DNA of 32,000 nucleotides. Source: an uncultured bacterium (GTDB lineage Bacteria; Patescibacteriota; Gracilibacteria; UBA1369; PNNO01). The stretch covers positions 90,001 to 122,000 of the forward strand of contig OY969931.1 of assembly GCA_963704705.1 (NCBI GenBank), written 5' to 3'. The notes below the pieces were generated by a model. The model saw nothing but the letters and a program-made list of their open reading frames with translations, was not told the DNA's origin and made no database searches. Positions 4,529 through 30,955 of this stretch are shown one piece after another; positions within the stretch are counted from its first letter, which is position 1; the number at the start of each line of letters is the position of its first letter. Position numbers and translations under genes: made by a program.

Positions 4529-6399
4529 TAAGTGCAGGTCGTTGCAGTACTGGTATCAACTCTGTTGTCTAAGTAGTAATAATCTCCTACCTGATATTGG
4601 CAACCATAATAGTCGTCAATTCCATAAACCGGAATAAAGTCACCGTCTCTTGCACCGAATTCACGAGCATCGTAAACACCATTATCTGAAGCCATCGCCA
4701 CAGTATTTTTATTTATTTCATATTTGAAAACTCTTCTTGTATTGTTTTCAGTATAATCAGGAATAAAAATCAACATTGTATTATCTAGAGCCAAGCAGTA
4801 CTCTCCCTTATCATCAACAGCTGAATCCATATAAGATGGCCATTCTCCAGGTAGTGTCGATGAATATGAATCAAGAGATCCAATAAAATCTACATACCAA
4901 TCTTGATCACTGTAATCCTGAATGCTTCCGCATCCGTCAAAAGCAATTCCCGCTATTGGTGTAAATTCAAGTGAATCTAGCATTGAATAATAATCTGGCA
5001 TGTAATCATTTAATGTATTTGCATTAGGGGCGCTAAAGAAAAATTCAATATGACTATCCCATTCATTATCAACAACATAGTAACCATTTCGTACAAATAC
5101 ATAATCGGTATTTTCCTCTGTTGCATACCAGGGAGTTTCCTCATTTAAGCCTTGAATTGGGTGTGGTGTCCCATCTGTAATAATATTTCCTTCATATCCG
5201 GTTTCCACCGGAGGAGCATTAATTATGATTCTTAAATCAGGGTCAGCTTCATTTACAAATGCTAATCGAAGTTGGCTAAAAGTGCCAAAATCAGTAGTCT
5301 CTTCTTGATCTAAAGTCCATCCTTCAGGAATATCAAAACTTAAATTAAAATCAGGATTATTATAAGAATTTGAAGCAGAAGTATTTGGCTCTCTGAATGT
5401 AAGCATTATGTGATTAATCAAATAGCTGGCTTCAAGGCTTGGACTAAAAGAACCTATTCTGTAATTTTCATTTATATTAAAACAAGTGGCCTGATATGTT
5501 TCAGGACCGCAATCCATTTGTCTTTGATTTATGGCCACTATTTCATCACCCGCATCTGTAGTGCCTTCAATTATTATACTTGGATAATCAGCAACCACAC
5601 CACCTGCAGTTGTATAAAAATTATCTGAAGTCACCTCCCACCCGTCAGGCATAATAAAGCTTACGCCATTTGAAGGGCTGACATAATAATTAAGTGGATT
5701 TGGCGACATTGTATCAACATAACCAAACACTGAATTATCAGTTAAAGTCTTCATTCTATAAAGCATTTCAGCCACTTCTTTTCTGCTCATTGAATCGCCC
5801 GGATGAAAATAAATTTCATTCATACTGTCAGCAGCAAGTTGTGTTACGTGGTCTTTTCCAACCGCATTTCTATCAACAGCTGAATATATGTAAACATCAA
5901 ACCAGTTGTTGCCTGGTAATACATCTCTGTAAACATTGTCGCCACGATTTAATGATTCTTCGTTTAATAAATCAAATCCAACCACCGCCATTTTAATTGC
6001 TTCAGCCCGGTTAACACACTGTCCCGGTTTAAAAGTTCTATCAGGATATCCTTGAACAGCTTCGTCGCGGATTCCCTGATCAACATATGGCCAATACCAT
6101 TCTTCAGGCGAAACGTCGCTGAAATAATCAGCGTAATACATTGAGCCTGCATGCGCATCGCTCACAATAATGTTTGTACCCAAAGTTAAGTACATCATTT
6201 TTAAAAATTCAGCGCGATTCACACATTGGTCAGGCATAAAAGTGCCATCAGGATATCCCTGAATAACACCGTTATCAGCCATCCACTGAATAGATGAAGC
6301 ATAACTTGTGCTTGTAGTAACATCAGAAAAAGCTGCGCCAGCCACCTGTCCGATCATCAAAGTCAAAATAAAAACAGGAATTAGAAAAACTTTTTTCAT
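4522..6399 (-). CDS. Secreted S-layer-homology (SLH) domain surface protein
   Basis: 625 aa. Signal peptide MKKVFLIPVFILTLMIGQVAGAAF. Tandem SLH motifs (FSDV..W..GVIQGYPDGTFMPDQCVNRAEFLKMMY; ..VQGYPDRTFKPGQCVNRAEAIKMAV). Long acidic, aromatic-rich C-terminal region with no recognised family. The 3' end overlaps comM by 7 nt (convergent). Confidence 0.8.
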   Translation of the reverse strand: MKKVFLIPVFILTLMIGQVAGAAFSDVTTSTSYASSIQWMADNGVIQGYPDGTFMPDQCVNRAEFLKMMYLTLGTNIIVSDAHAGSMYYADYFSDVSPEEWYWPYVDQGIRDEAVQGYPDRTFKPGQCVNRAEAIKMAVVGFDLLNEESLNRGDNVYRDVLPGNNWFDVYIYSAVDRNAVGKDHVTQLAADSMNEIYFHPGDSMSRKEVAEMLYRMKTLTDNSVFGYVDTMSPNPLNYYVSPSNGVSFIMPDGWEVTSDNFYTTAGGVVADYPSIIIEGTTDAGDEIVAINQRQMDCGPETYQATCFNINENYRIGSFSPSLEASYLINHIMLTFREPNTSASNSYNNPDFNLSFDIPEGWTLDQEETTDFGTFSQLRLAFVNEADPDLRIIINAPPVETGYEGNIITDGTPHPIQGLNEETPWYATEENTDYVFVRNGYYVVDNEWDSHIEFFFSAPNANTLNDYMPDYYSMLDSLEFTPIAGIAFDGCGSIQDYSDQDWYVDFIGSLDSYSSTLPGEWPSYMDSAVDDKGEYCLALDNTMLIFIPDYTENNTRRVFKYEINKNTVAMASDNGVYDAREFGARDGDFIPVYGIDDYYGCQYQVGDYYYLDNRVDTSTATTCTYQ

Positions 6400-7975: not shown

Positions 7976-9467
7976 AAGCTTTAAGTAAAATTGCCACTAT
8001 AAAATAAATTAATGCTCCAACAGCTATTCTGAATAACTGCAGAGTGAAAAAAGACGTTGAAATTATACTAGGAATATAAATAACCGCAAGTCCCATTAAG
8101 CCGGAGGCAAGAGCGATTTTTATTAATTTTAAGCCAAATTTTCGCCATTTGAATCCTTTGAGTTTTTTTGAGAAAAAAGCAGCGAGCAAAATAAGCTGAA
8201 TAGATGTACCAATTAAAAACGCAATGGATATTGCTGCAACACCAATAAATTTTGCAGCGATTATACAAAATCCAATATTAATTGCATATCCAATCAACGA
8301 AAATGACATTGGCGTTAAAGTGTTTTTATACGCATAATATCCGCGCGCAAAAATATGAACCGCGCTTTCAACCGGAATCGATAAAACAAAAAATACAAGC
8401 ACTGTACTGGTTAATGTAACAGCGGCTTCATCAAAAACTCCTCCTTTCAATATAATTTCGATTATTTCTCGATTCATAATCAGCATTCCAACTGTTGCGG
8501 GCACTGCGAAAAATAATATTTTTTCCAATGTTTTCTGAAAATCAAATGAGAAATTTTTAACATCTTTATTGTGCACATGGTCAGCTAAAAACGGAAAAAC
8601 CGCAGTAGCAAAGGCTATTCCAAATAGACTAACCGGAAAACTTTGCAAATTTCGAGCATAATTAAATGCCGCAACACTTCCCTCAGCCAAACTAAAAGCA
8701 ACAAAAGTATATGTCCAAAGCATTATCTGCCATGCCACAAGGCTAATTGTTTTTGGAATCATCAGTTTAAAAATTTTTCTGACTCCCTCATGTTTTAAAT
8801 CCAATGTTAACTTAAATTTGTATTTAACAGTTAGAATATCCAGAATTCTAACTGCAAGATGAAAGAATGATCCGATGATGGCGCCAAAAGCAGCAGCATA
8901 AATTCCAAATTGTTTACTCAATAAAAGAATTCCAAGAATAATTCCAAGATTATATAAAAATCCGCTAAGCGCATAAGCCATAAAATGCTTCTGAGTAATC
9001 AAAATGCTCCCTAGCGCATTACTTATTGCAAACAAAATCGGCGACAATAAAAGTATTCTCGTCATTCCAATAATCAGTTCATGGTCAGCAGGATCAATAT
9101 GGCTAAAAAAACCGCTTATTACATATGGAGCCAAAAAGAAAAATACAATTCCAAGTCCGCCAAGCAAAAGCGAACCAAAGGTAATAATCGTATTTGCAAT
9201 TTTGCGCGCAACCTCTTCGTTTTCTTTAAAATAACTTGTAAAAACCGGCACAAACGCCACACTAAGCGCACCCGCAATAACCAGATTAAATAAAAGATCA
9301 GGAATCAAAAAAGAAGCATTATAAGCGTCGGTATAGTGTGTTGCACCAAATGTTGTTGAAAGAACACGATCGCGCATCAACCCTGCCGCATAACTAAGTG
9401 CCGACGCAGCCATGAGCAAAAACGCTGCCTGTCCTGTTTTTTGCGATCTAAATATTTTGCTTAGCAT
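7950..9467 (-). CDS. murJ: Lipid II flippase MurJ (MviN)
   Basis: 505 aa polytopic protein. The N-terminus ...AAFLLMAASALSYAAGLMRDRVLSTTFGATHYTDAYNASFLIPDLLFNLVIAGALSVAFVPVF is the conserved MurJ/MviN signature. Confidence 0.9.
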   Translation of the reverse strand: MLSKIFRSQKTGQAAFLLMAASALSYAAGLMRDRVLSTTFGATHYTDAYNASFLIPDLLFNLVIAGALSVAFVPVFTSYFKENEEVARKIANTIITFGSLLLGGLGIVFFFLAPYVISGFFSHIDPADHELIIGMTRILLLSPILFAISNALGSILITQKHFMAYALSGFLYNLGIILGILLLSKQFGIYAAAFGAIIGSFFHLAVRILDILTVKYKFKLTLDLKHEGVRKIFKLMIPKTISLVAWQIMLWTYTFVAFSLAEGSVAAFNYARNLQSFPVSLFGIAFATAVFPFLADHVHNKDVKNFSFDFQKTLEKILFFAVPATVGMLIMNREIIEIILKGGVFDEAAVTLTSTVLVFFVLSIPVESAVHIFARGYYAYKNTLTPMSFSLIGYAINIGFCIIAAKFIGVAAISIAFLIGTSIQLILLAAFFSKKLKGFKWRKFGLKLIKIALASGLMGLAVIYIPSIISTSFFTLQLFRIAVGALIYFIVAILLKAYEQKAKVR

Positions 9468-9561: not shown

Positions 9562-9590
9562 TTGTCAAAAATTTAAGTTGAAGCTATAAT
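9562..9590 (+). promoter_or_regulatory. Sigma70-type promoter of murA (TTGTCA-17 nt-TATAAT)
   Basis: TTGTCA at 9562-9567 and TATAAT at 9585-9590, with exactly 17 nt between them. The -10 element ends 10 nt before the murA ATG at 9601, which implies a leader of only a few nt and no SD. Confidence 0.55.
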
Positions 9591-9600
9591 ACACATCACT

Positions 9601-10854
9601 ATGGCAAAATACATTGTACAGGGAGGTCAAAAACTCGAAGGAACCATTAAAGTCAGCGGTTCCAAGAATGCCGCATTACCTATTTTATGCGCAACCCTTC
9701 TTGCAAACGAAAAATCTATAATTAAAAATGTTCCGAATATTGCTGATATAAAAGCCATGATTCAGCTTCTTGAATTTCTTGGATGTAAAGTTGAGTTCAG
9801 CAACGGCACTGTTGAGGTAGATCCGAAAAATCTTAAAAGTAAAACAGCTTCAATGGAAGGGGTTTGCAATATGAGAGCATCTGTTCTTTTGCTCGGTCCT
9901 TTGCTTGCGCGCTTTGGAAAAGCCAAGATGTCGTTTCCGGGTGGATGTATTTTGGGTAAGCGTCCTGTTGATTCTCATCTTTCAGCGCTCGAAGGCCTTG
10001 GCGCAAAGGTGGTTGATGAAAATGAAATGATCAGCATGATAGCACCACAGTTGAAAGGCGCAGACATCACAATGAAAGAAATAAGCGTTACAGCAACTGA
10101 AAATGCAGTTATGGCAGCGTCAGTTGCCAAAGGAAAAACCCATATTAGGCTTGCCGCAGCTGAGCCACACGTTCAGGATCTCTGTAAATTTCTTAATAAA
10201 ATGGGCGCTAAAATTAAAGGAATAGGAACACATGATCTTCAAATTGAAGGCGTAGCTAAGCTAAAAGGCGCAACACATACTGTTACAGGCGATTATCTTG
10301 AAGCCGGAACATTCGCGATTGCCGCAGCACTTACAAACGGAAAAGTTAAAATAACCGGCATAAATCCACACGATCTCGACATTGTTTGGAATAAATTTGA
10401 AGAAGCCGGCATTGAATATAAAATCGACACTGATTCAATTACTATATTACCTCATGGTCGCCTTAAAAATGTGGCAAAAGTGCGTACTGCTGTTTTTCCG
10501 AGTTTTCCAACAGATCTTCAGGCTCCATTTACAGTTCTTCTTACCATGATTCCAGGAGAGAGCATGGTTCATGAAACACTTTTTGACGGCCGCTTAAATT
10601 ACCTTGCTGAGCTTGAAAAAATGGGGGCAAAATTTGATATTTTGAATCCTCATCAGGCGATTATTCATGGGCCGCACAAATTAAAGGCAGCACCAATTTC
10701 ATCTTGGGATATTCGCGCTGGAGCAGCCATGGTTTTGGCTGCGCTTGCAGCAAAAGGCACAACAGAAATAAGCAACATCGGATTTATTGATCGCGGTTAT
10801 GAAAATTTGGAAGGAAAATTAAAAAAGCTGGGCGCTAAAATCGAGAGAGTTTAG
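9601..10854 (+). CDS. murA: UDP-N-acetylglucosamine 1-carboxyvinyltransferase MurA
   Basis: 417 aa. MAKYIVQGGQKLEGTIKVSGSKNAALPILCATLL, an active-site loop FPGGCILGKRPVDSHL with the catalytic Cys, and C-terminal IDRGYENLEGKLKKLGAKIERV. Confidence 0.95.
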   Translation: MAKYIVQGGQKLEGTIKVSGSKNAALPILCATLLANEKSIIKNVPNIADIKAMIQLLEFLGCKVEFSNGTVEVDPKNLKSKTASMEGVCNMRASVLLLGPLLARFGKAKMSFPGGCILGKRPVDSHLSALEGLGAKVVDENEMISMIAPQLKGADITMKEISVTATENAVMAASVAKGKTHIRLAAAEPHVQDLCKFLNKMGAKIKGIGTHDLQIEGVAKLKGATHTVTGDYLEAGTFAIAAALTNGKVKITGINPHDLDIVWNKFEEAGIEYKIDTDSITILPHGRLKNVAKVRTAVFPSFPTDLQAPFTVLLTMIPGESMVHETLFDGRLNYLAELEKMGAKFDILNPHQAIIHGPHKLKAAPISSWDIRAGAAMVLAALAAKGTTEISNIGFIDRGYENLEGKLKKLGAKIERV

Positions 10855-24115: not shown

Positions 24116-24808
24116 ATGAAAACATCGGATATTCAGAAAGAATTAAAAGCTTTGGTTACCCCTGGGAAAGCTGAACTTTTAGCTCGGTTTTTTAAAACCG
24201 GAAAAGGGGAATATGGAGAAGGCGATATTTTTATCGGGGTTATGGTTCCTCAAATTCGTGAAGCTGCAAAAAAATTTAAAGAAATTTCACTTATTGAATT
24301 GCAAAAATTAATTCAGAGCGAAATACACGAAGAACGGCTTTGTGCAGCCTTAATTTTAACATATAAAAAACTTGGCAAAGACATTGTGGATTTTTATTTG
24401 CGAAATACCAAGTACTTAAATAATTGGGATATTATTGATTTAACAGCTCCGAGAATTTTAGGAAATTGGATGTTGGAGAATAAAAATGATAGAAAAATTT
24501 TGTATAAATTCGCAAAATCGAAATCTTTATGGGAGAGAAGGATCGCTGTACTTTCAACTTTTATGTTTATAAGAGAGCGTGATTTTTCCGATTCGTTTGC
24601 CATTAGCGAAATTTTACTTAATGATACACATGATCTAATACATAAAGCGGTTGGCTGGATGCTGCGCGAAATAGGAAAACGTGATCAAAAAACAGAAGAA
24701 AAATTTCTGCAAAAATACTATAAAAAAATGCCGCGAACTATGTTAAGATACGCTATTGAACGGTTCGAAGAAACTAAACGAAAATCTTATTTAAATGGAA
24801 CTAAATAA
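24116..24808 (+). CDS. DNA alkylation repair protein (AlkD/AlkC-like HEAT-repeat DNA glycosylase family)
   Basis: 230 aa. AELLARFFKTGKGEYGEGDIFIGV.VPQIR..AKKF...NNWDIIDL.AP.ILG...LWERRIAVLSTF...HDLIHKAVGWMLREIGKRD matches the DNA_alkylation family pattern. The ATG directly abuts the previous stop codon. Confidence 0.85.
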   Translation: MKTSDIQKELKALVTPGKAELLARFFKTGKGEYGEGDIFIGVMVPQIREAAKKFKEISLIELQKLIQSEIHEERLCAALILTYKKLGKDIVDFYLRNTKYLNNWDIIDLTAPRILGNWMLENKNDRKILYKFAKSKSLWERRIAVLSTFMFIRERDFSDSFAISEILLNDTHDLIHKAVGWMLREIGKRDQKTEEKFLQKYYKKMPRTMLRYAIERFEETKRKSYLNGTK

Positions 24809-25607
24809 TGTACTGATAGCTTTCGGACTCACTTTATTTGCAGGTCTTTCTACGGGAATCGGCAGCGCTTTGGCTTTTTTTACAAAGCACACTAATAAAA
24901 AAGCTTTGTCTGTAGCTCTGGGTTTTTCTGCCGGAGTCATGATTTATGTTTCTTTTATTGAGATTTTTCCTGAAGCAAAAAATCATTTAATGCTTACACA
25001 GGGTGATTTTAATGGCAGGTGGATTGCAGTTGGGGCTTTTTTTCTTGGAATATTTTTGGCTGCAATTATAGACAGAGTGATTCCTTCTTTTGAAAATCCA
25101 CATGAACTTCATACTGTTGAAGAATTAGAAAAACATAAAGATAAACGCGAATGTAAAAGGTTAATGAGAATGGGGATTTTTGTTGCCTTGGCAATTGCAA
25201 TACATAATTTTCCTGAGGGATTTGCAACTTTTGCATCTGCGCTTATTGATTTAAAGCTTGGTATCGCCATTGCAATCGCTATTGCTATACATAATATCCC
25301 TGAGGGTATTGCTATATCATTTCCTATTTATTGCGCTACAAATAATAAGAAAAAGGCATTCGTATATTCATTTTTATCCGGATTAACTGAACCATTAGGT
25401 GCTTTGGTCGGCTATTTTATTTTGCTTCCTTATTTGAATGATACTGTTTTAGGAATAGTTTTGGGAGCGGTTGCCGGACTTATGGTTTTTATTTCATTGG
25501 ATGAATTGGTCCCTGCTTCCCGCGAATTTGGCCATCCGCATTTGGCAATTTATGGCTTAATTGCCGGAATGAGCATAATGGCACTTAGCCTTCTGTTGGC
25601 TATTTAA
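24795..25607 (+). CDS. zupT: ZIP-family zinc transporter ZupT
   Basis: 270 aa. LFAGLSTGIGSALAFF, duplicated AIAIHNFPEG/AIAIHNIPEGIA metal-binding motifs, and a C-terminal SLDELVPA. Confidence 0.9.
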   Translation: MELNNVLIAFGLTLFAGLSTGIGSALAFFTKHTNKKALSVALGFSAGVMIYVSFIEIFPEAKNHLMLTQGDFNGRWIAVGAFFLGIFLAAIIDRVIPSFENPHELHTVEELEKHKDKRECKRLMRMGIFVALAIAIHNFPEGFATFASALIDLKLGIAIAIAIAIHNIPEGIAISFPIYCATNNKKKAFVYSFLSGLTEPLGALVGYFILLPYLNDTVLGIVLGAVAGLMVFISLDELVPASREFGHPHLAIYGLIAGMSIMALSLLLAI

Positions 25608-25664
25608 ATTATAATTGACAAATTAAATAAATATGTTAGAATAAACTCAGTGTGAATTTTGACA

Positions 25665-25989
25665 TCGGGTTTTTTAACCCAAGGAGGATAGTGTGATGCT
25701 GAATTTCATGGGAATGGTAATCCATCTGGTCGCGGACTACATGCCCATCGATGGAGAGTCGACAGGATTCGTCCATCTCAACGCATACCCAGACCCGCTT
25801 CATCCCGGTCAGTTCACTATCCACGAGTGGCTGAGCCGCAGCTCCATCCTGGAGCCGTGGATCAAGTCGTACTGTCTCGTGCCGAACGCCTGCAACTAGC
25901 CGACAGTTCTGCCGGACACCCGCCGTTCACATGGGGCTAGCTCTAAAGCTGCCCCCACCTCTGTCGATGAAATCGGCACTGATGAGTTC
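25665..25989. other. Compositionally anomalous GC-rich island (~56% G+C) in the convergent zupT/lgt intergenic gap
   Basis: Hand count gives 169 G+C in the 300 nt from 25681 to 25980, against 22/60 for 25561-25620. The right edge abuts the lgt stop codon at 25990-25992. Confidence 0.8.
25693..25899 (+). CDS. Small hypothetical protein (67-68 aa) of foreign-looking composition, possibly a remnant of a longer gene
   Basis: AAGGAGGA at 25681-25688, then GTG 25693 / ATG 25696. Third codon positions are ~80% G/C and second positions ~40% (ttc atc gac tac ctc aac ccg ...). Ends at TAG 25897-25899. The peptide MMLNFMGMVIHLVADYMPIDGESTGFVHLNAYPDPLHPGQFTIHEWLSRSSILEPWIKSYCLVPNACN is not recognised. 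Confidence 0.5.
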   Translation: MMLNFMGMVIHLVADYMPIDGESTGFVHLNAYPDPLHPGQFTIHEWLSRSSILEPWIKSYCLVPNACN

Positions 25990-26772
25990 TTACTTCTTTT
26001 TACGCCAGAACGAAAGGTAAATAAAATATCCAACAGCAATTAATACAGGCAGAATGCTTAGCCACTGCCCCATCGATAAAGGAATGTCATAACTAAGTAC
26101 ATGCCTTTCTTTCCAAAATTCAACAATAAATCTCGTAATAAAATAAAGGAAAATATATAAAAATAAAATAAATAATGGCGGCAGTTTTTTAAACCATTTT
26201 AAATAAACAAATAACAACACAAAAAAAATCGCGAAACTTAAAGCCGATTCATATAATTGAGAAGGATGTCTTGGAAATTCTTCTCCCAATTTTTGAAATA
26301 CAACTCCCCAGCTGCCATCAGTTGGACGGCCAACAATCTCGCTGTTAAAAAAATTCCCTATTCTTACAAAGCCTGAAGTGATTGGAAAACCTATGACCAA
26401 TAAATCCAGATAAAATGTGAATTTTTTTTTGTGTATCCAAATCCATAATAAATAAGCGACCAAGAGACCAATTGCTGCGCCGTGGCTTGCCAGACCGCCT
26501 TTCCAAATCATAATGATTTCCAAAGGATTCTGAAGATAATACGTGAGATCATAAAACACAATGTGGCCGAGTCGCGCTCCAACAACCATACCTACAAATA
26601 AATAAAGCGCCACACTTTCCAGATCGCGCACATCCAGTTTTTCACGTTTAAAAATCCATCTTAAAACCAAATAGGTCAGCACAAGCCCGATTACAAACAA
26701 AAGGCCGTACCACCGTAGTGATAGCGGCCCCAAGTTAGCAATAATCGGAGATATATCGTGATAAAAAATCAA
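25990..26772 (-). CDS. lgt: Prolipoprotein diacylglyceryl transferase Lgt
   Basis: 260 aa. LSLRWYGLLFVIGL...GARLGHIVFY...WKGGLASHGAAIG...GNFFNSEIVGRPT...HPSQLYES are the Lgt signature blocks. Confidence 0.92.
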   Translation of the reverse strand: MIFYHDISPIIANLGPLSLRWYGLLFVIGLVLTYLVLRWIFKREKLDVRDLESVALYLFVGMVVGARLGHIVFYDLTYYLQNPLEIIMIWKGGLASHGAAIGLLVAYLLWIWIHKKKFTFYLDLLVIGFPITSGFVRIGNFFNSEIVGRPTDGSWGVVFQKLGEEFPRHPSQLYESALSFAIFFVLLFVYLKWFKKLPPLFILFLYIFLYFITRFIVEFWKERHVLSYDIPLSMGQWLSILPVLIAVGYFIYLSFWRKKK

Positions 26773-26773
26773 A

Positions 26774-27259
26774 TTAAATATTTTTTAGATCTTCTTCTAT
26801 TTGCTGTAAATCATCCTCGTGCTCAATTTCATCTTTTAAAATAGCTAATGCCATTTCGTAAGTTGTAACATCTTTATCTTTCGTCATGTCAGAAAGATCT
26901 TTGTAAACCTGTATTGCGCACTGTTCACCTTTAATATTTTGAGCAAGGATTTTTTTAATTGCAGGATCAGATGGTGCTGCATAGCCGCAGTTTGTTTTGT
27001 CATACCATTCTTTTGGTTCTAAAATAGGTGTTCCTCCAAGTTGAATTATTCTCATTGCAAGCATATCTGCGTGCCTAAGCTCATCAGCTGCGTGCTGAAT
27101 TAATTCTGCAACTGCTTCGCCTCGCATTGGACCTGAAATAACTTTTGAACCTACCCAGTATTGGTAGTATGCAAGCCATTCATCAGCAAGAGCTTTGTTT
27201 AATATGTCGATTAATTCTTTAACATCGAGGTCAAGAATTTCAATGCCTTTTGTTCCCAT
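26774..27259 (-). CDS. Ferritin-like di-iron protein, Dps-like/bacterioferritin-related (DPSL-type, with a Cys pair)
   Basis: Called from the internal Met MGTKGIEILDLDVKELIDILNKALADEWLAYYQYW (ATG 27259..27257). The 38-codon upstream extension in the track ORF (to 27373) is low-complexity hydrophobic and overlaps the divergent gene. Di-iron ligand motifs are E..(A)YY.YW, AADELRHADML and EIEHEDDL. Cysteines occur in NCGYAAP and GEQCAIQVY. The stop lies 1 nt from the lgt start, so the two are probably co-transcribed. Confidence 0.75.
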   Translation of the reverse strand: MGTKGIEILDLDVKELIDILNKALADEWLAYYQYWVGSKVISGPMRGEAVAELIQHAADELRHADMLAMRIIQLGGTPILEPKEWYDKTNCGYAAPSDPAIKKILAQNIKGEQCAIQVYKDLSDMTKDKDVTTYEMALAILKDEIEHEDDLQQIEEDLKNI

Positions 27260-27896
27260 GATTAATTTGGTTAATAAAATTACATATAACAGTATCTCAT
27301 TATTGAGAAATTTTTCAAGGTGTGTAATAATTAAATTTGTGGCTAAAATAATTATAAAAAAATCAATTCGCAAAACAATATCGTTGTCTGTTGAAGAGGA
27401 CGGGATTGTTTTGGCGAGAGCACCAAGGTATGTTTCGAATAAACAGATTGAAGATTTTATATACGAAAAAAAATCATGGATTAATAAAAGACTTGCGGAA
27501 ATGAAGGAAAGAAAAGAAAAAGCTCAAAGATTCAATGATTTGATTGATCCGAATAAAACAATTTATTATCGCGAAAAAGCACGTTCACTTTTAACGGATC
27601 GAACCGATTATTATGCTGAAAAATTTGGCCTTAAATATAACGGTATACGAATTAATGGCGCAAGAACACGCTGGGGTTCATGCAATTATAAAAATGGCCT
27701 AAACTTCAATTGGAAGATTTTATTTGCACCTCCTCAGGTTATGGATTATTTGGTTGTGCATGAGCTTGCACACACAATCCATAAAAATCACAAAAAATTA
27801 TTTTGGAATAAAGTTGCTTTAATGCATCCGGAACATAAAGAATCACGCAAATGGCTTAGGCAGAATCAGCATTTACTTGAGGCAAAATTATCCTAG
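27258..27896 (+). CDS. YgjP-like/DUF45 (M48-related, SprT-like) metal-dependent hydrolase
   Basis: KKSIRKTISLSVEEDGIVLARAP...IEDFIYEKKSWINKRL, then RINGARTRWGSC and the zinc motif VVHELAHTIHKNHKKLFW. The start is uncertain: the track TTG at 27195 overlaps the ferritin-like gene, and the alternatives are ATG 27258, TTG 27303 and GTG 27339. Confidence 0.75.
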   Translation: MINLVNKITYNSISLLRNFSRCVIIKFVAKIIIKKSIRKTISLSVEEDGIVLARAPRYVSNKQIEDFIYEKKSWINKRLAEMKERKEKAQRFNDLIDPNKTIYYREKARSLLTDRTDYYAEKFGLKYNGIRINGARTRWGSCNYKNGLNFNWKILFAPPQVMDYLVVHELAHTIHKNHKKLFWNKVALMHPEHKESRKWLRQNQHLLEAKLS

Positions 27897-28791
27897 GGAA
27901 AACATGATATAAATATGCGATAAACACACTTAATAAAAATATTGCACTTAAGTATTCATGGAATAAATTTATCGCGAGTTCAGGTGAATAAAAAGCGCCA
28001 ACCGAAACAATAATCGCGATTCGAATAATGTTTAGAATAAACAGCACTACCAATCCGGCGAAAAGTGCCAGAGCAGCTTTTAATGAATTAATTTTGGCTT
28101 TTTTCTTTATCATCATCAATGCCGCAACAAATAAAAAGCTAAAAGTAACCATTGAATAAATTCCCGAACACGTTGCCCCGACAATAACTTCAAACTTTTC
28201 CATACGAACCAAAAGCTGGCTTGGATCAATAGTCACCAGTTTTGAAAATAATGGCAGAACAAATGCAAGTGCGGATAAAATTACACCTGAAAAATATATC
28301 CAAAGTGATTCAAGAAGTATATCGCTGGCAGTATAAAGTGTGATTACATAAGTAAGCAAAAATAATTCTGATGAGAATTTTTTAATGAATTTAACATTGA
28401 ATATCGCGCAGAATAAAAATATAAAACCCAGAAACAGAGGATAATAATAAATAAAAGTTCCAGGTACGTTGTCACCGAAAAACAAATAAACTCCTCTTAA
28501 CGGTAAAAGAAAAACCGTTATTGCTGCTATACTGAAAAGAAGCGTTTGCCAAAATTTGTTTTTAATTGGCTCCATTTCTTTAAGTTGCTTCCATCTAAAA
28601 AGCACAAAGAGCGAAACAACCGGATACATCAAATAAATAAAGTATGGTTGATAAAAACTTTGTTTATAGCCAAGAAATCTAGAAGTAAATTCAGAATGAT
28701 ATGTGAAAATCAGTGCATATAGCACCAGAAACAATCCAAGCCGCACAAAAAATCCAAAGGTTTTATGATTTTTAATTTTTGCCAAATTCAT
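27856..28791 (-). CDS. Exosortase/archaeosortase (EpsH) family polytopic membrane protein
   Basis: 311 aa with ~8 TM helices. VIVGATCSGIYSM (Cys208 in the family CSG context), LNIIRIAII (Arg257) and LFHEYLSAIF (His278) occur in the order and approximate spacing of the exosortase/archaeosortase conserved residues. The 3' end overlaps the DUF45 gene by 41 nt (convergent). Confidence 0.65.
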   Translation of the reverse strand: MNLAKIKNHKTFGFFVRLGLFLVLYALIFTYHSEFTSRFLGYKQSFYQPYFIYLMYPVVSLFVLFRWKQLKEMEPIKNKFWQTLLFSIAAITVFLLPLRGVYLFFGDNVPGTFIYYYPLFLGFIFLFCAIFNVKFIKKFSSELFLLTYVITLYTASDILLESLWIYFSGVILSALAFVLPLFSKLVTIDPSQLLVRMEKFEVIVGATCSGIYSMVTFSFLFVAALMMIKKKAKINSLKAALALFAGLVVLFILNIIRIAIIVSVGAFYSPELAINLFHEYLSAIFLLSVFIAYLYHVFPRIILPQVNADSA

Positions 28792-28942
28792 AATTTTTTG
28801 TTTTTTATATCCTGATTATTATAGCATTTTTGGCTTAAACTTGCAATGTTTAGACAATAGAGTAAAATTAATATATTAAGAAAATATAAAATTCAAAAAT
28901 AATTAATGCCAACAGGCATAATAAAAAAATAACCCAATAATT

Positions 28943-30585: not shown

Positions 30586-30654
30586 TCTAGAAAAAATTCA
30601 AAAACAATACAAATTAATGTATAATTTTTAATTGAGTATTCTTAACCGACGATT

Positions 30655-30945
30655 ATGTACAAATGTCAGTCATGTGGATTCACATCTGAACAAGCGGGTG
30701 AACATTGTGGTATGCCTATGGTAGAGGTAGCTACAACACCTACGGAAGGAGCGCCAGCTCCAGCAGAATCAGCACCAGCGCCTGAAGCGCCAGCGCCAGC
30801 ACCAGCACCTGAAGCGCCAGCACCAGCACCAGCGCCTGAAGCGCCAGCACCAGCTGAACCAGCTCCGGGCACACCAGCGTCTGCGCCTGAAATGCCTGCA
30901 ACTCCGGCTGCTGAGCCGCCTGTTGAAGAAAAACCTCCAATGTAA
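30655..30945 (+). CDS. Small zinc-ribbon-like protein with an Ala/Pro-rich repetitive tail
   Basis: 96 aa. MYKCQSCGFTSEQAGEHCGMPM (CxxC...HC), then (APAPAPAPE)n and a PA-rich tail. Both antisense track ORFs over this region are low-complexity artefacts. Confidence 0.6.
   Translation: MYKCQSCGFTSEQAGEHCGMPMVEVATTPTEGAPAPAESAPAPEAPAPAPAPEAPAPAPAPEAPAPAEPAPGTPASAPEMPATPAAEPPVEEKPPM
30787..30858 (+). repeat. 27-nt in-frame tandem repeat (2.7 copies) encoding APAPAPAPE
   Basis: gcgccagcgccagcaccagcacctgaa (30787-30813), gcgccagcaccagcaccagcgcctgaa (30814-30840) and a partial gcgccagcaccagctgaa (30841-30858). Confidence 0.85.
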
Positions 30946-30955
30946 AACTAATTCA

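Follow-up and report, generated by a model that had tools for sequence, protein, structure and literature searches.

We analysed a stretch of 32,000 nucleotides (nt), hereafter the window, from contig OY969931.1 of an uncultured bacterium of the Gracilibacteria (assembly GCA_963704705.1, positions 90,001 to 122,000 of the forward strand). Two chromosomal housekeeping genes converge in it: zupT, encoding a ZIP transporter, on the plus strand (24795..25607; PF02535, 2e-38), and lgt on the minus strand (25990..26772; PF01790, 8e-67). Between their stop codons (25605-07 and 25990-92) lies an island of 0.38 kb, 25608..25989 on the plus strand, which holds a σ70-type promoter, a hairpin leader with a Shine-Dalgarno (SD) sequence, a gene of 67 codons, and a 3' untranslated region (UTR) that runs into a candidate type III hammerhead ribozyme. 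The reading we prefer, if by a modest degree, is that of a rare, strain-variable accessory small-gene cassette with a probable hammerhead at its 3' end.

An insertion between zupT and lgt

The original prediction, drawn from the letters of the window, was of a foreign-looking GC-rich island, and its base counts are exact: direct counting gives 169/300 G+C for 25681-25980 and 22/60 for the flank at 25561-25620. The whole window has 35.9% G+C and the island from 25681 to 25989 has 56%; along a 200-nt sliding window the value rises from ~0.34-0.42 to 0.555-0.570 (starts 25700 and 25800) and falls to 0.305 by start 26000. The end of the island is placed at 25989 because the stop codon of lgt, on the minus strand, follows immediately. 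The GC-rich part runs from the 5' hairpin through to the lgt stop, both here and in a second genome described below, and the conserved promoter region has a G+C content of 19% (11/58). Only one other stretch of the window, ~30626-30950, is equally GC-rich; we considered it as a second copy of the island and rejected it. Its open reading frame (ORF; 30655-30945, plus strand, 56% G+C) encodes 96 amino acids (aa), with CxxC...C in the N-terminal part and an extended tail of Pro/Ala-rich repeats (APAPAPEAPAP...). The G+C content at its third codon positions (GC3) is only 0.26, which indicates a native gene whose GC richness stems from amino-acid composition.

Sister loci were collected as contigs of Lgt homologues at 77-92% identity. 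Identity to the Lgt of the window is 92% in L081, 87% in L082, 86% in L083, 83% in L090/91, 81% in L085, 80% in L086 and 77% in L087-89, and the names attached to more distant homologues are Patescibacteria, Gracilibacteria and Peregrinibacteria, of the Patescibacteria/candidate phyla radiation (CPR) group. In these seven distinct loci the convergent genes lgt and zupT overlap at the 3' end by 8-32 nt, which leaves no room between them, and the window is collinear with the sister loci on either side of the island. Similarity to the closest relatives, L081 and L083, breaks off at 25595 and is found again only from 26023-24 on; along with the island, therefore, zupT and lgt each received a new 3' tail. 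The polymorphism is thereby demonstrated, and that the island is an insertion which most relatives lack, as had been proposed, we regard as close to certain. Among these loci a homologue of the island occurs only in L084 (JGI 3300009320, Lgt 83%), a more distant relative from a different metagenome, at 71% nt identity over 358 nt; this copy likewise stands flush against the lgt stop.

The second copy also bears on the possibility that the island is an assembly chimera or contaminant read-through on a CPR contig. The abrupt change in composition at both edges would fit such an artefact, and the concern had been raised with the original prediction. It is excluded by the independently assembled contig of L084, where a diverged copy with the identical lgt junction sits in a related genome. 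In addition, blastn in distant mode of the island against plasmids, phages and E. coli genomes found nothing, nor did tblastn of the encoded peptide against plasmids and phages, and the AT-rich promoter within the insertion is host-like. We find an artefact barely credible.

Further copies were sought in several ways. The alignment of the two sequences, used as a search query, retrieved no other copy from metagenome and viral contigs, and a codon-degenerate pattern for IHEWxxRxxILEPW matched nothing in the viral and metagenome contigs; the pattern does match L084, so the searched collections simply lack the element. A scan of genome contigs based on ZupT gave only matches of 57-68% identity from many phyla, with no synteny and no similarity to the island.

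The gap between lgt and zupT is a hot spot for accessory genes. At L084 4745-6532, between island and zupT, lies a gene for a sigma factor of the extracytoplasmic function (ECF) type (184 aa), divergent from the small gene; after it comes a gene for a 351-aa protein without family match, whose 3' end overlaps zupT. Both are AT-rich and have no homologue in the window, and since the window does without them, neither is required by the cassette; a functional tie of the cassette to the ECF sigma factor was considered and rejected on this ground. The C-terminal tail of Lgt (window 25990-26030) occurs across L081-L091 in distinct versions, …GYFIYLSFWRKKK, …GYFAWLLIKRKSKG and …GYFGWILYKKK. The tail in the window matches L082 and L084 and the remainder of its lgt is closest to L081, a mismatch of affinities between tail and body which suggests recombination at the lgt-zupT junction.

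A small orphan gene

The gene occupies 25696..25899 on the plus strand, TAG stop included, and encodes a protein of 67 residues (MLNFMGMVIHLVADYMPIDGESTGFVHLNAYPDPLHPGQFTIHEWLSRSSILEPWIKSYCLVPNACN). Both copies of the ORF consist of an ATG, 67 codons and a TAG, and their 204 nt align without a gap (68% nt identity, 61% aa identity); the 5' and 3' UTRs, unlike the ORF, align with gaps. Over the ungapped block the BLOSUM62 score between the two copies is 221 in the sense frame, where 42/68 residues are identical, and 84-148 in the other five frames. Conservation is concentrated in the blocks ML-F-G-VI--V-D-MPI, AYPDPL, TIHEW-SR-SILEPW and C-VPN--N. The G+C content at the three codon positions is 0.53/0.37/0.76 in the window (chi-square p = 3e-5) and 0.49/0.40/0.94 in L084 (p = 7e-11), and GC3 in native genes ranges from 0.21 to 0.34. 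The GC3-biased signature first noticed in the window thus lies far outside the native range, at a GC3 slightly under the ~80% initially given. Of the two start codons first offered, GTG 25693 falls away because L084 has ATC at that position, leaving ATG 25696. Comparison of the two copies upholds the coding status of the ORF, its host-alien codon usage and a functional-looking SD sequence, and we consider it very probably a real protein-coding gene.

Several observations weigh against a coding role. The dN and dS of the small gene are 0.34 and 0.75 (ω 0.46), with ω ~0.1 and dS 1.05-1.46 in the flanking genes; purifying selection on the protein appears only moderate by this measure, 26/67 residues being different. 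Stops are likewise absent from frame +2 and antisense frame 0. Searches of Pfam, NCBIfam, PHROGs, PADLOC and PDB returned nothing for the peptide even at E-values up to 1-10, and a single-sequence AlphaFold model has a pLDDT (predicted local distance difference test) of 46, with no usable fold. In L084 the pipeline of the Joint Genome Institute (JGI) called a 51-aa ORF on the other strand (4564-4719, plus strand of that contig), antisense to the conserved gene. The antisense products share 35% identity over 51 aligned residues between L084 and the window, and as protein queries the antisense ORFs retrieved only the entry of L084 itself. Owing to this wrong-strand call the real protein is missing from protein databases. 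A word-indexed library of 5.8 billion clustered proteins gave no match to the peptide, and phmmer found no homologue among 1.84 billion representative proteins; the protein is a true orphan, with two copies and no relative in the ~15 billion predicted proteins behind the clustered libraries. From its composition (grand average of hydropathy, GRAVY, 0.15 and -0.26 in the two copies; isoelectric point, pI, 5.2-5.8; predicted mass 7.6 kDa) the product, encoded nearly throughout by codons ending in G or C, would be soluble and mildly acidic.

When an AT-rich genome holds a GC-rich island, that island is typically a structured RNA, and this one could accordingly be read in its entirety as a non-coding RNA, its G+C content raised by selection for folding and its ORF incidental. 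Modest folding z-scores of -2.4 and -2.5 agree with this, as do seven pairs changed on both sides in the two-sequence RNAalifold model and a dS below that of the flanks. None of this accounts for a three-base periodicity of G+C that reaches 94% at one codon position, for which RNA structure offers no explanation. The sense frame is far better conserved than the others, the ORF is free of the indels that both UTRs carry, and SD, ATG and TAG are all conserved. Known families give no support either. At the gathering score, Rfam 15 matched only a tRNA-Ser in the whole window and nothing over the island, be it RNase P RNA, tmRNA, SRP RNA, 6S RNA or any other family, the outcome of a check suggested at the outset; in E-value mode the segment 25650-25950 yielded nothing up to E = 10 save a chance match to Glutamine-II (E = 8.5), and ARAGORN detected no transfer-messenger RNA in the window. 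The stem at 25841-55, which had been noted as a possible sign of structured RNA, is invariant coding sequence (S-I-L-E-P) and hence uninformative either way. The structural caveat survives for the 3' UTR, with its conserved GGGGC...GCCCC hairpin and the hammerhead-like motif next to it. For the island as a whole, a non-coding RNA is very unlikely.

The ORF had also been suspected of being the nonsense-interrupted, 3'-truncated remnant of a larger gene. A decaying pseudogene fragment of a longer high-GC gene, cut off at the lgt junction, would leave the frame of the window open beyond the TAG, as it is. The lower GC3 of the window copy (0.76, with 0.94 in L084) resembles amelioration: among the 24 third-position differences, 14 have G/C in L084 and A/T in the window, and 2 are the reverse. 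Yet the TAG stands at the identical codon in both copies, gaps of 3 nt and 1 nt break the frame after it, and the downstream segment is conserved as hairpins rather than as a frame. The unit has its own conserved promoter, SD and ATG, and the phmmer search revealed no longer homologue. This suspicion does not hold, and a pseudogene is highly improbable.

The source of the GC richness may be either recent lateral movement among related lineages from a GC-rich source or selection on synonymous sites, be it for RNA stability, structure or codon choice. Import from a higher-GC genome is plausible; no donor genome was found for the island.

Promoter, leader and Shine-Dalgarno sequence

The gene is preceded by a σ70-type promoter with an extended -10 element, TTGACA-16-TG-n-TAGAAT (25615..25642, plus strand), which matches 11/12 consensus positions and carries the TG. 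It is the best of 18 candidates in 3 kb. Three sites in the window score at least 11/12; two of them immediately precede native genes, and the remaining one belongs to the island (TTGACA-16-TGtTAGAAT). L084 conserves it as TTGACA-16-TGcTAAGAT. Native promoters in the window are σ70-like, and the AT-rich promoter of the island is native in style and part of the conserved unit.

Transcription is predicted to start at ~25649-50, giving a leader of 47 nt. It opens with a conserved box, GUGUGAAnnUUGACAUC (25651..25666, plus strand), identical to L084 at 14/16 positions. Directly before the SD sequence stands the hairpin GGGUU-UUUU-AACCC (25667..25680, plus strand); at the same place L084 has GGGCAGA-AUCAG-UCUGCCC, so that the structure is kept and the sequence of the upper stem replaced. 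The SD sequence itself, AAGGAGGA (25681..25688, plus strand), is separated from the ATG by 7 nt; L084 retains GGAGGAT, and the distance from GGAGGAU to ATG is 7-8 nt in the two copies. All the sequence features originally listed are present, the 5' hairpin one base to the right of where it had first been put.

We surveyed SD motifs and stop codons in all 25 window ORFs of at least 120 aa. Ahead of the starts of these native ORFs no SD-like motif exceeds AGGA, in agreement with the claim that the island carries the only SD ahead of any ORF in the window; the only other occurrence of AAGGAGGA is at 8439, on the minus strand and inside a gene. The host appears not to use SD sequences, and this counts against a function of the SD here, which is only predicted. 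A native near-consensus promoter at 9562-9590 ends ~10 nt before the ATG at 9601, an example which suggests that native mRNAs are leaderless or very short-leadered.

A candidate hammerhead at the insertion junction

Downstream of the gene the 3' UTR contains the hairpin GGGGCUAGCU-CUAA-AGCUGCCCC (25933..25955, plus strand), whose lower stem, GGGGC/GCCCC, is conserved and whose upper stem and loop differ in L084. Next to it, at 25957..26018 on the same strand, lies the candidate hammerhead, composed of the last 33 nt of the island and 29 nt antisense to lgt; the latter are the antisense of Lgt codons ...YLSFWRKKK (the last 9 codons and the stop). Stem III would be formed by A25957-C59 with G26016-U18 (3 bp), stem I by 25962-68 with 25972-78 (7 bp) and stem II by 25986-90 with 26007-11 (5 bp), the last closed by a loop of 16 nt in which the lgt stop codon lies. 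The core CUGAUGA (25979-85) and the GAA of G12, A13 and A14 (26012-14) are identical in L084, and A15.1 (26015), the same in L084, pairs with U16.1 (25960). Cleavage is predicted after C17 (25961), between 25961 and 25962. Both copies have all the invariant core nucleotides (C3, U4, G5, A6, G8, A9, G12, A13, A14, the A15.1-U16.1 pair and C17), and in both the cleavage-site H17 is C, not G. Conservation of the promoter, the SD sequence, the hairpins and this core is thus demonstrated in the two copies.

In E-value mode the only notable Rfam match in the window is to Hammerhead_3 (RF00008) at 25960-26015, with 18.4 bits and E = 0.42; the copy in L084 scores 26.5 bits against the full RF00008 model (Infernal; E = 0.002, corrected for 4227 families). 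The minimum free energy (MFE) fold of 96- and 99-nt segments is a three-way junction in both copies, with stems I and II closed and stem III open. A descriptor that demanded the core, UH, and a minimum of 5, 4 and 3 bp in the stems was run over 684 kb on both strands (1.37 Mb) and over 20 block-shuffled replicates (~27 Mb). It matched only the sites in the window and in L084 in the real sequence, and nothing in the shuffles. Between the copies, stem I changes from G-C to A-U and from U·G to C-G, both compensatory, and the U·G wobble is valid on the plus strand only. Nowhere is the 3' UTR better conserved than in the island-encoded half of the motif (ACCUC, stem I and CUGAUGAG), whose stem differs between the copies by compensatory changes only. 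From these features we lean towards an active type III hammerhead in the 3' UTR. By eye, three base pairs might also form between loop I (GAA in the window, GAG in L084) and a UUC of loop II, where the change from A to G would keep a G·U pair.

Several points weigh against catalysis. Both scores are well below the Rfam gathering score of 48.5. Taken alone, the 66- and 68-nt ribozyme segments do not exceed shuffled sequence in stability (z = +0.39 and -0.04). Stem III has only 3 bp besides the A-U pair, and Infernal marks the outer three pairs as non-canonical; the loop of stem II is unusually long. The covariation consists of two compensated pairs in two related copies. Moreover, the 3' half of the ribozyme appears to pre-exist or to be constrained by the Lgt protein: it is nearly the same in the island-less L082, so its conservation needs no ribozyme. 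Genomes with the island keep AGAAC-GAAA, and island-less relatives have AAAAC (L082) or CAAAAGG (L090).

The same small-protein cassette could therefore carry a non-catalytic resemblance to a hammerhead, with the 3' hairpins acting as stabilisers or terminators shared by the small gene and lgt. To the low scores, the stability of the isolated segments and the tie of the 3' half to Lgt coding can be added that the hairpins fold on either strand. The complete core with three correctly placed stems, absent from the shuffles and from the rest of the real sequence, speaks for catalysis, as does the pattern of conservation in the island half. Nor do the hairpins look like terminators, as neither is followed by a U-tract and a terminator scan found no terminator-like site in the island. 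We consider a non-catalytic motif possible but doubtful.

One further pairing concerns the regulation of the candidate. The 5'-UTR box includes CAUCGG (25662-25667, the final G of which already opens the 5' hairpin), a complement to CUGAUG of the hammerhead core (25979-25984). RNAalifold pairs these elements (columns 16-21 with 338-343), but as none of the six pairs differs between the copies, there is no covariation. If real, this long-range pairing could mask the ribozyme in the full-length transcript.

A search for the pattern of the hammerhead region in IMG/VR matched 20 specified bases in the viral contig L092 (7681-7702, minus strand), which we judged to be a chance match: it falls inside an ORF (...AVADEIGTDEYS...) with no hammerhead, and by our own estimate ~0.2 such matches are expected by chance.

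Other observations in the window

A second slot of presence and absence lies at 27876-28929. The window has there an exosortase-like gene (27856-28791, PF09721) with no counterpart in L081-L084; L081 and L084 have a fatty-acid hydroxylase gene in the slot, L082 a gene with an S-layer homology (SLH) domain, and L087 both an exosortase and an SLH gene. The ferritin-like ORF at 26774-27373 (minus strand) was listed as 199 aa from a TTG, and its orthologues have 161-162 aa. Its true start is probably an internal ATG (MGTKGIEILD...), which would remove the apparent overlap with the YgjP-like ORF at 27195-27896. Stop codons of the surveyed ORFs (TAA 17, TGA 3, TAG 3) indicate the standard genetic code, not code 25.

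Proposed mode of expression and relation to known systems

How might such a cassette be expressed in an AT-rich bacterium that does without SD sequences? We envisage a self-contained transcription unit, comprising a strong σ70 extended -10 promoter, the 47-nt hairpin leader with its consensus SD, the 67-codon gene, a GC-clamped 3' hairpin and the hammerhead. Transcription would begin at ~25649-50, and the leader hairpin and SD would drive translation of the 7.6-kDa protein. Because no terminator-like site was found, RNA polymerase is expected to read from the island promoter on into lgt, in antisense. The hammerhead could then fold from its 5' half in island DNA and its 3' half in the antisense end of lgt and cut after C25961. 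The product would be a monocistronic mRNA of ~313 nt, released from the antisense read-through of lgt and carrying a 2',3'-cyclic phosphate at a 3' end that the stable hairpin at 25933-55 would protect. That the unit is transcribed, that it cleaves itself and what purpose the cleavage serves are what we infer in this scheme.

The context of the ribozyme candidate is precedented: in prophage or mobile DNA of bacteria, single genes flanked by hammerheads are known, and the presumed role of these hammerheads is to trim transcripts to the length of a gene (Perreault et al. 2011, PMC3088659). The candidate resembles type III hammerheads (RF00008; PMC3088659) in its complete core and in its fold with stems I and II closed and stem III open. 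That it follows a lone small gene, in accessory DNA, would also fit the cutting of transcripts to gene-length mRNAs. It differs from the bacterial and prophage examples in scoring below the Rfam threshold, in its very short stem III and 16-nt loop II, and in that only one ribozyme is present, with no integrase or prophage nearby. Unlike in other type III hammerheads, the structure straddles an insertion junction, its 3' half being the antisense of the conserved housekeeping gene lgt. As a member of the type it would be new, and its placement atypical.

Two other comparisons concern the cassette as a unit. Prophage morons are autonomous units of promoter, gene and terminator with deviant base composition. 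The cassette is similar in being self-contained, with its own σ70 promoter, a single small gene, a deviant composition, and presence or absence between collinear genomes. It differs from morons in lying between the chromosomal genes zupT and lgt, in having no PHROG match, and in that a ribozyme candidate takes the place of a factor-independent terminator, of which none was found in the cassette. Type I toxin-antitoxin loci, like other genes for small proteins that overlap a convergent antisense transcript, share with it a small ORF, a strong promoter, a 5' UTR structured near the SD, and a convergent neighbouring transcript that might pair with the 3' end. However, the length of 67 aa, the hydropathy and the pI of the peptide are not those of a short hydrophobic membrane toxin; we identified no dedicated gene for an antisense RNA, and there is no match in PADLOC or Pfam.

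A more radical reading takes the GC-rich body, from the 5' hairpin to the hammerhead (~350 nt), as the DNA-resident form of a ribozyme-bearing, coding mobile RNA (viroid-like, Obelisk-like or a retro-element derivative) captured in a CPR bacterium. Its G+C content and synonymous constraint would be kept by selection or replication at the RNA level, and the element would target the 3' end of lgt, whose antisense completes the ribozyme. The size of ~0.35 kb, the G+C content of ~56-60%, the type III hammerhead and a small ORF, as in Obelisks, recall viroid-like circular RNAs and retrozymes. Yet the island resides in chromosomal DNA behind a DNA promoter, and it has a single hammerhead of one polarity, with no tandem repeat or second cleavage site. 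Its fold is not rod-like, and half of the ribozyme is host gene sequence. We think a captured RNA element quite unlikely.

Concluding remarks

The cassette reading has consequences for gene annotation and for the evolution of base composition in this group. The wrong-strand pipeline call in L084 implies that genes of this kind are systematically missed. A gene with 76-94% GC3 that persists among genes with 21-34% GC3, where dS in the flanks exceeds 1, is hard to square with neutral amelioration. For reduced, AT-rich episymbionts the cassette offers a clean case in which recent lateral transfer can be weighed against selection on synonymous sites or RNA structure. An active hammerhead would be a compact natural ribozyme serving as a 3'-end-forming device for a single bacterial mRNA, and a catalytic RNA assembled across an insertion junction from the antisense coding sequence of an essential gene.

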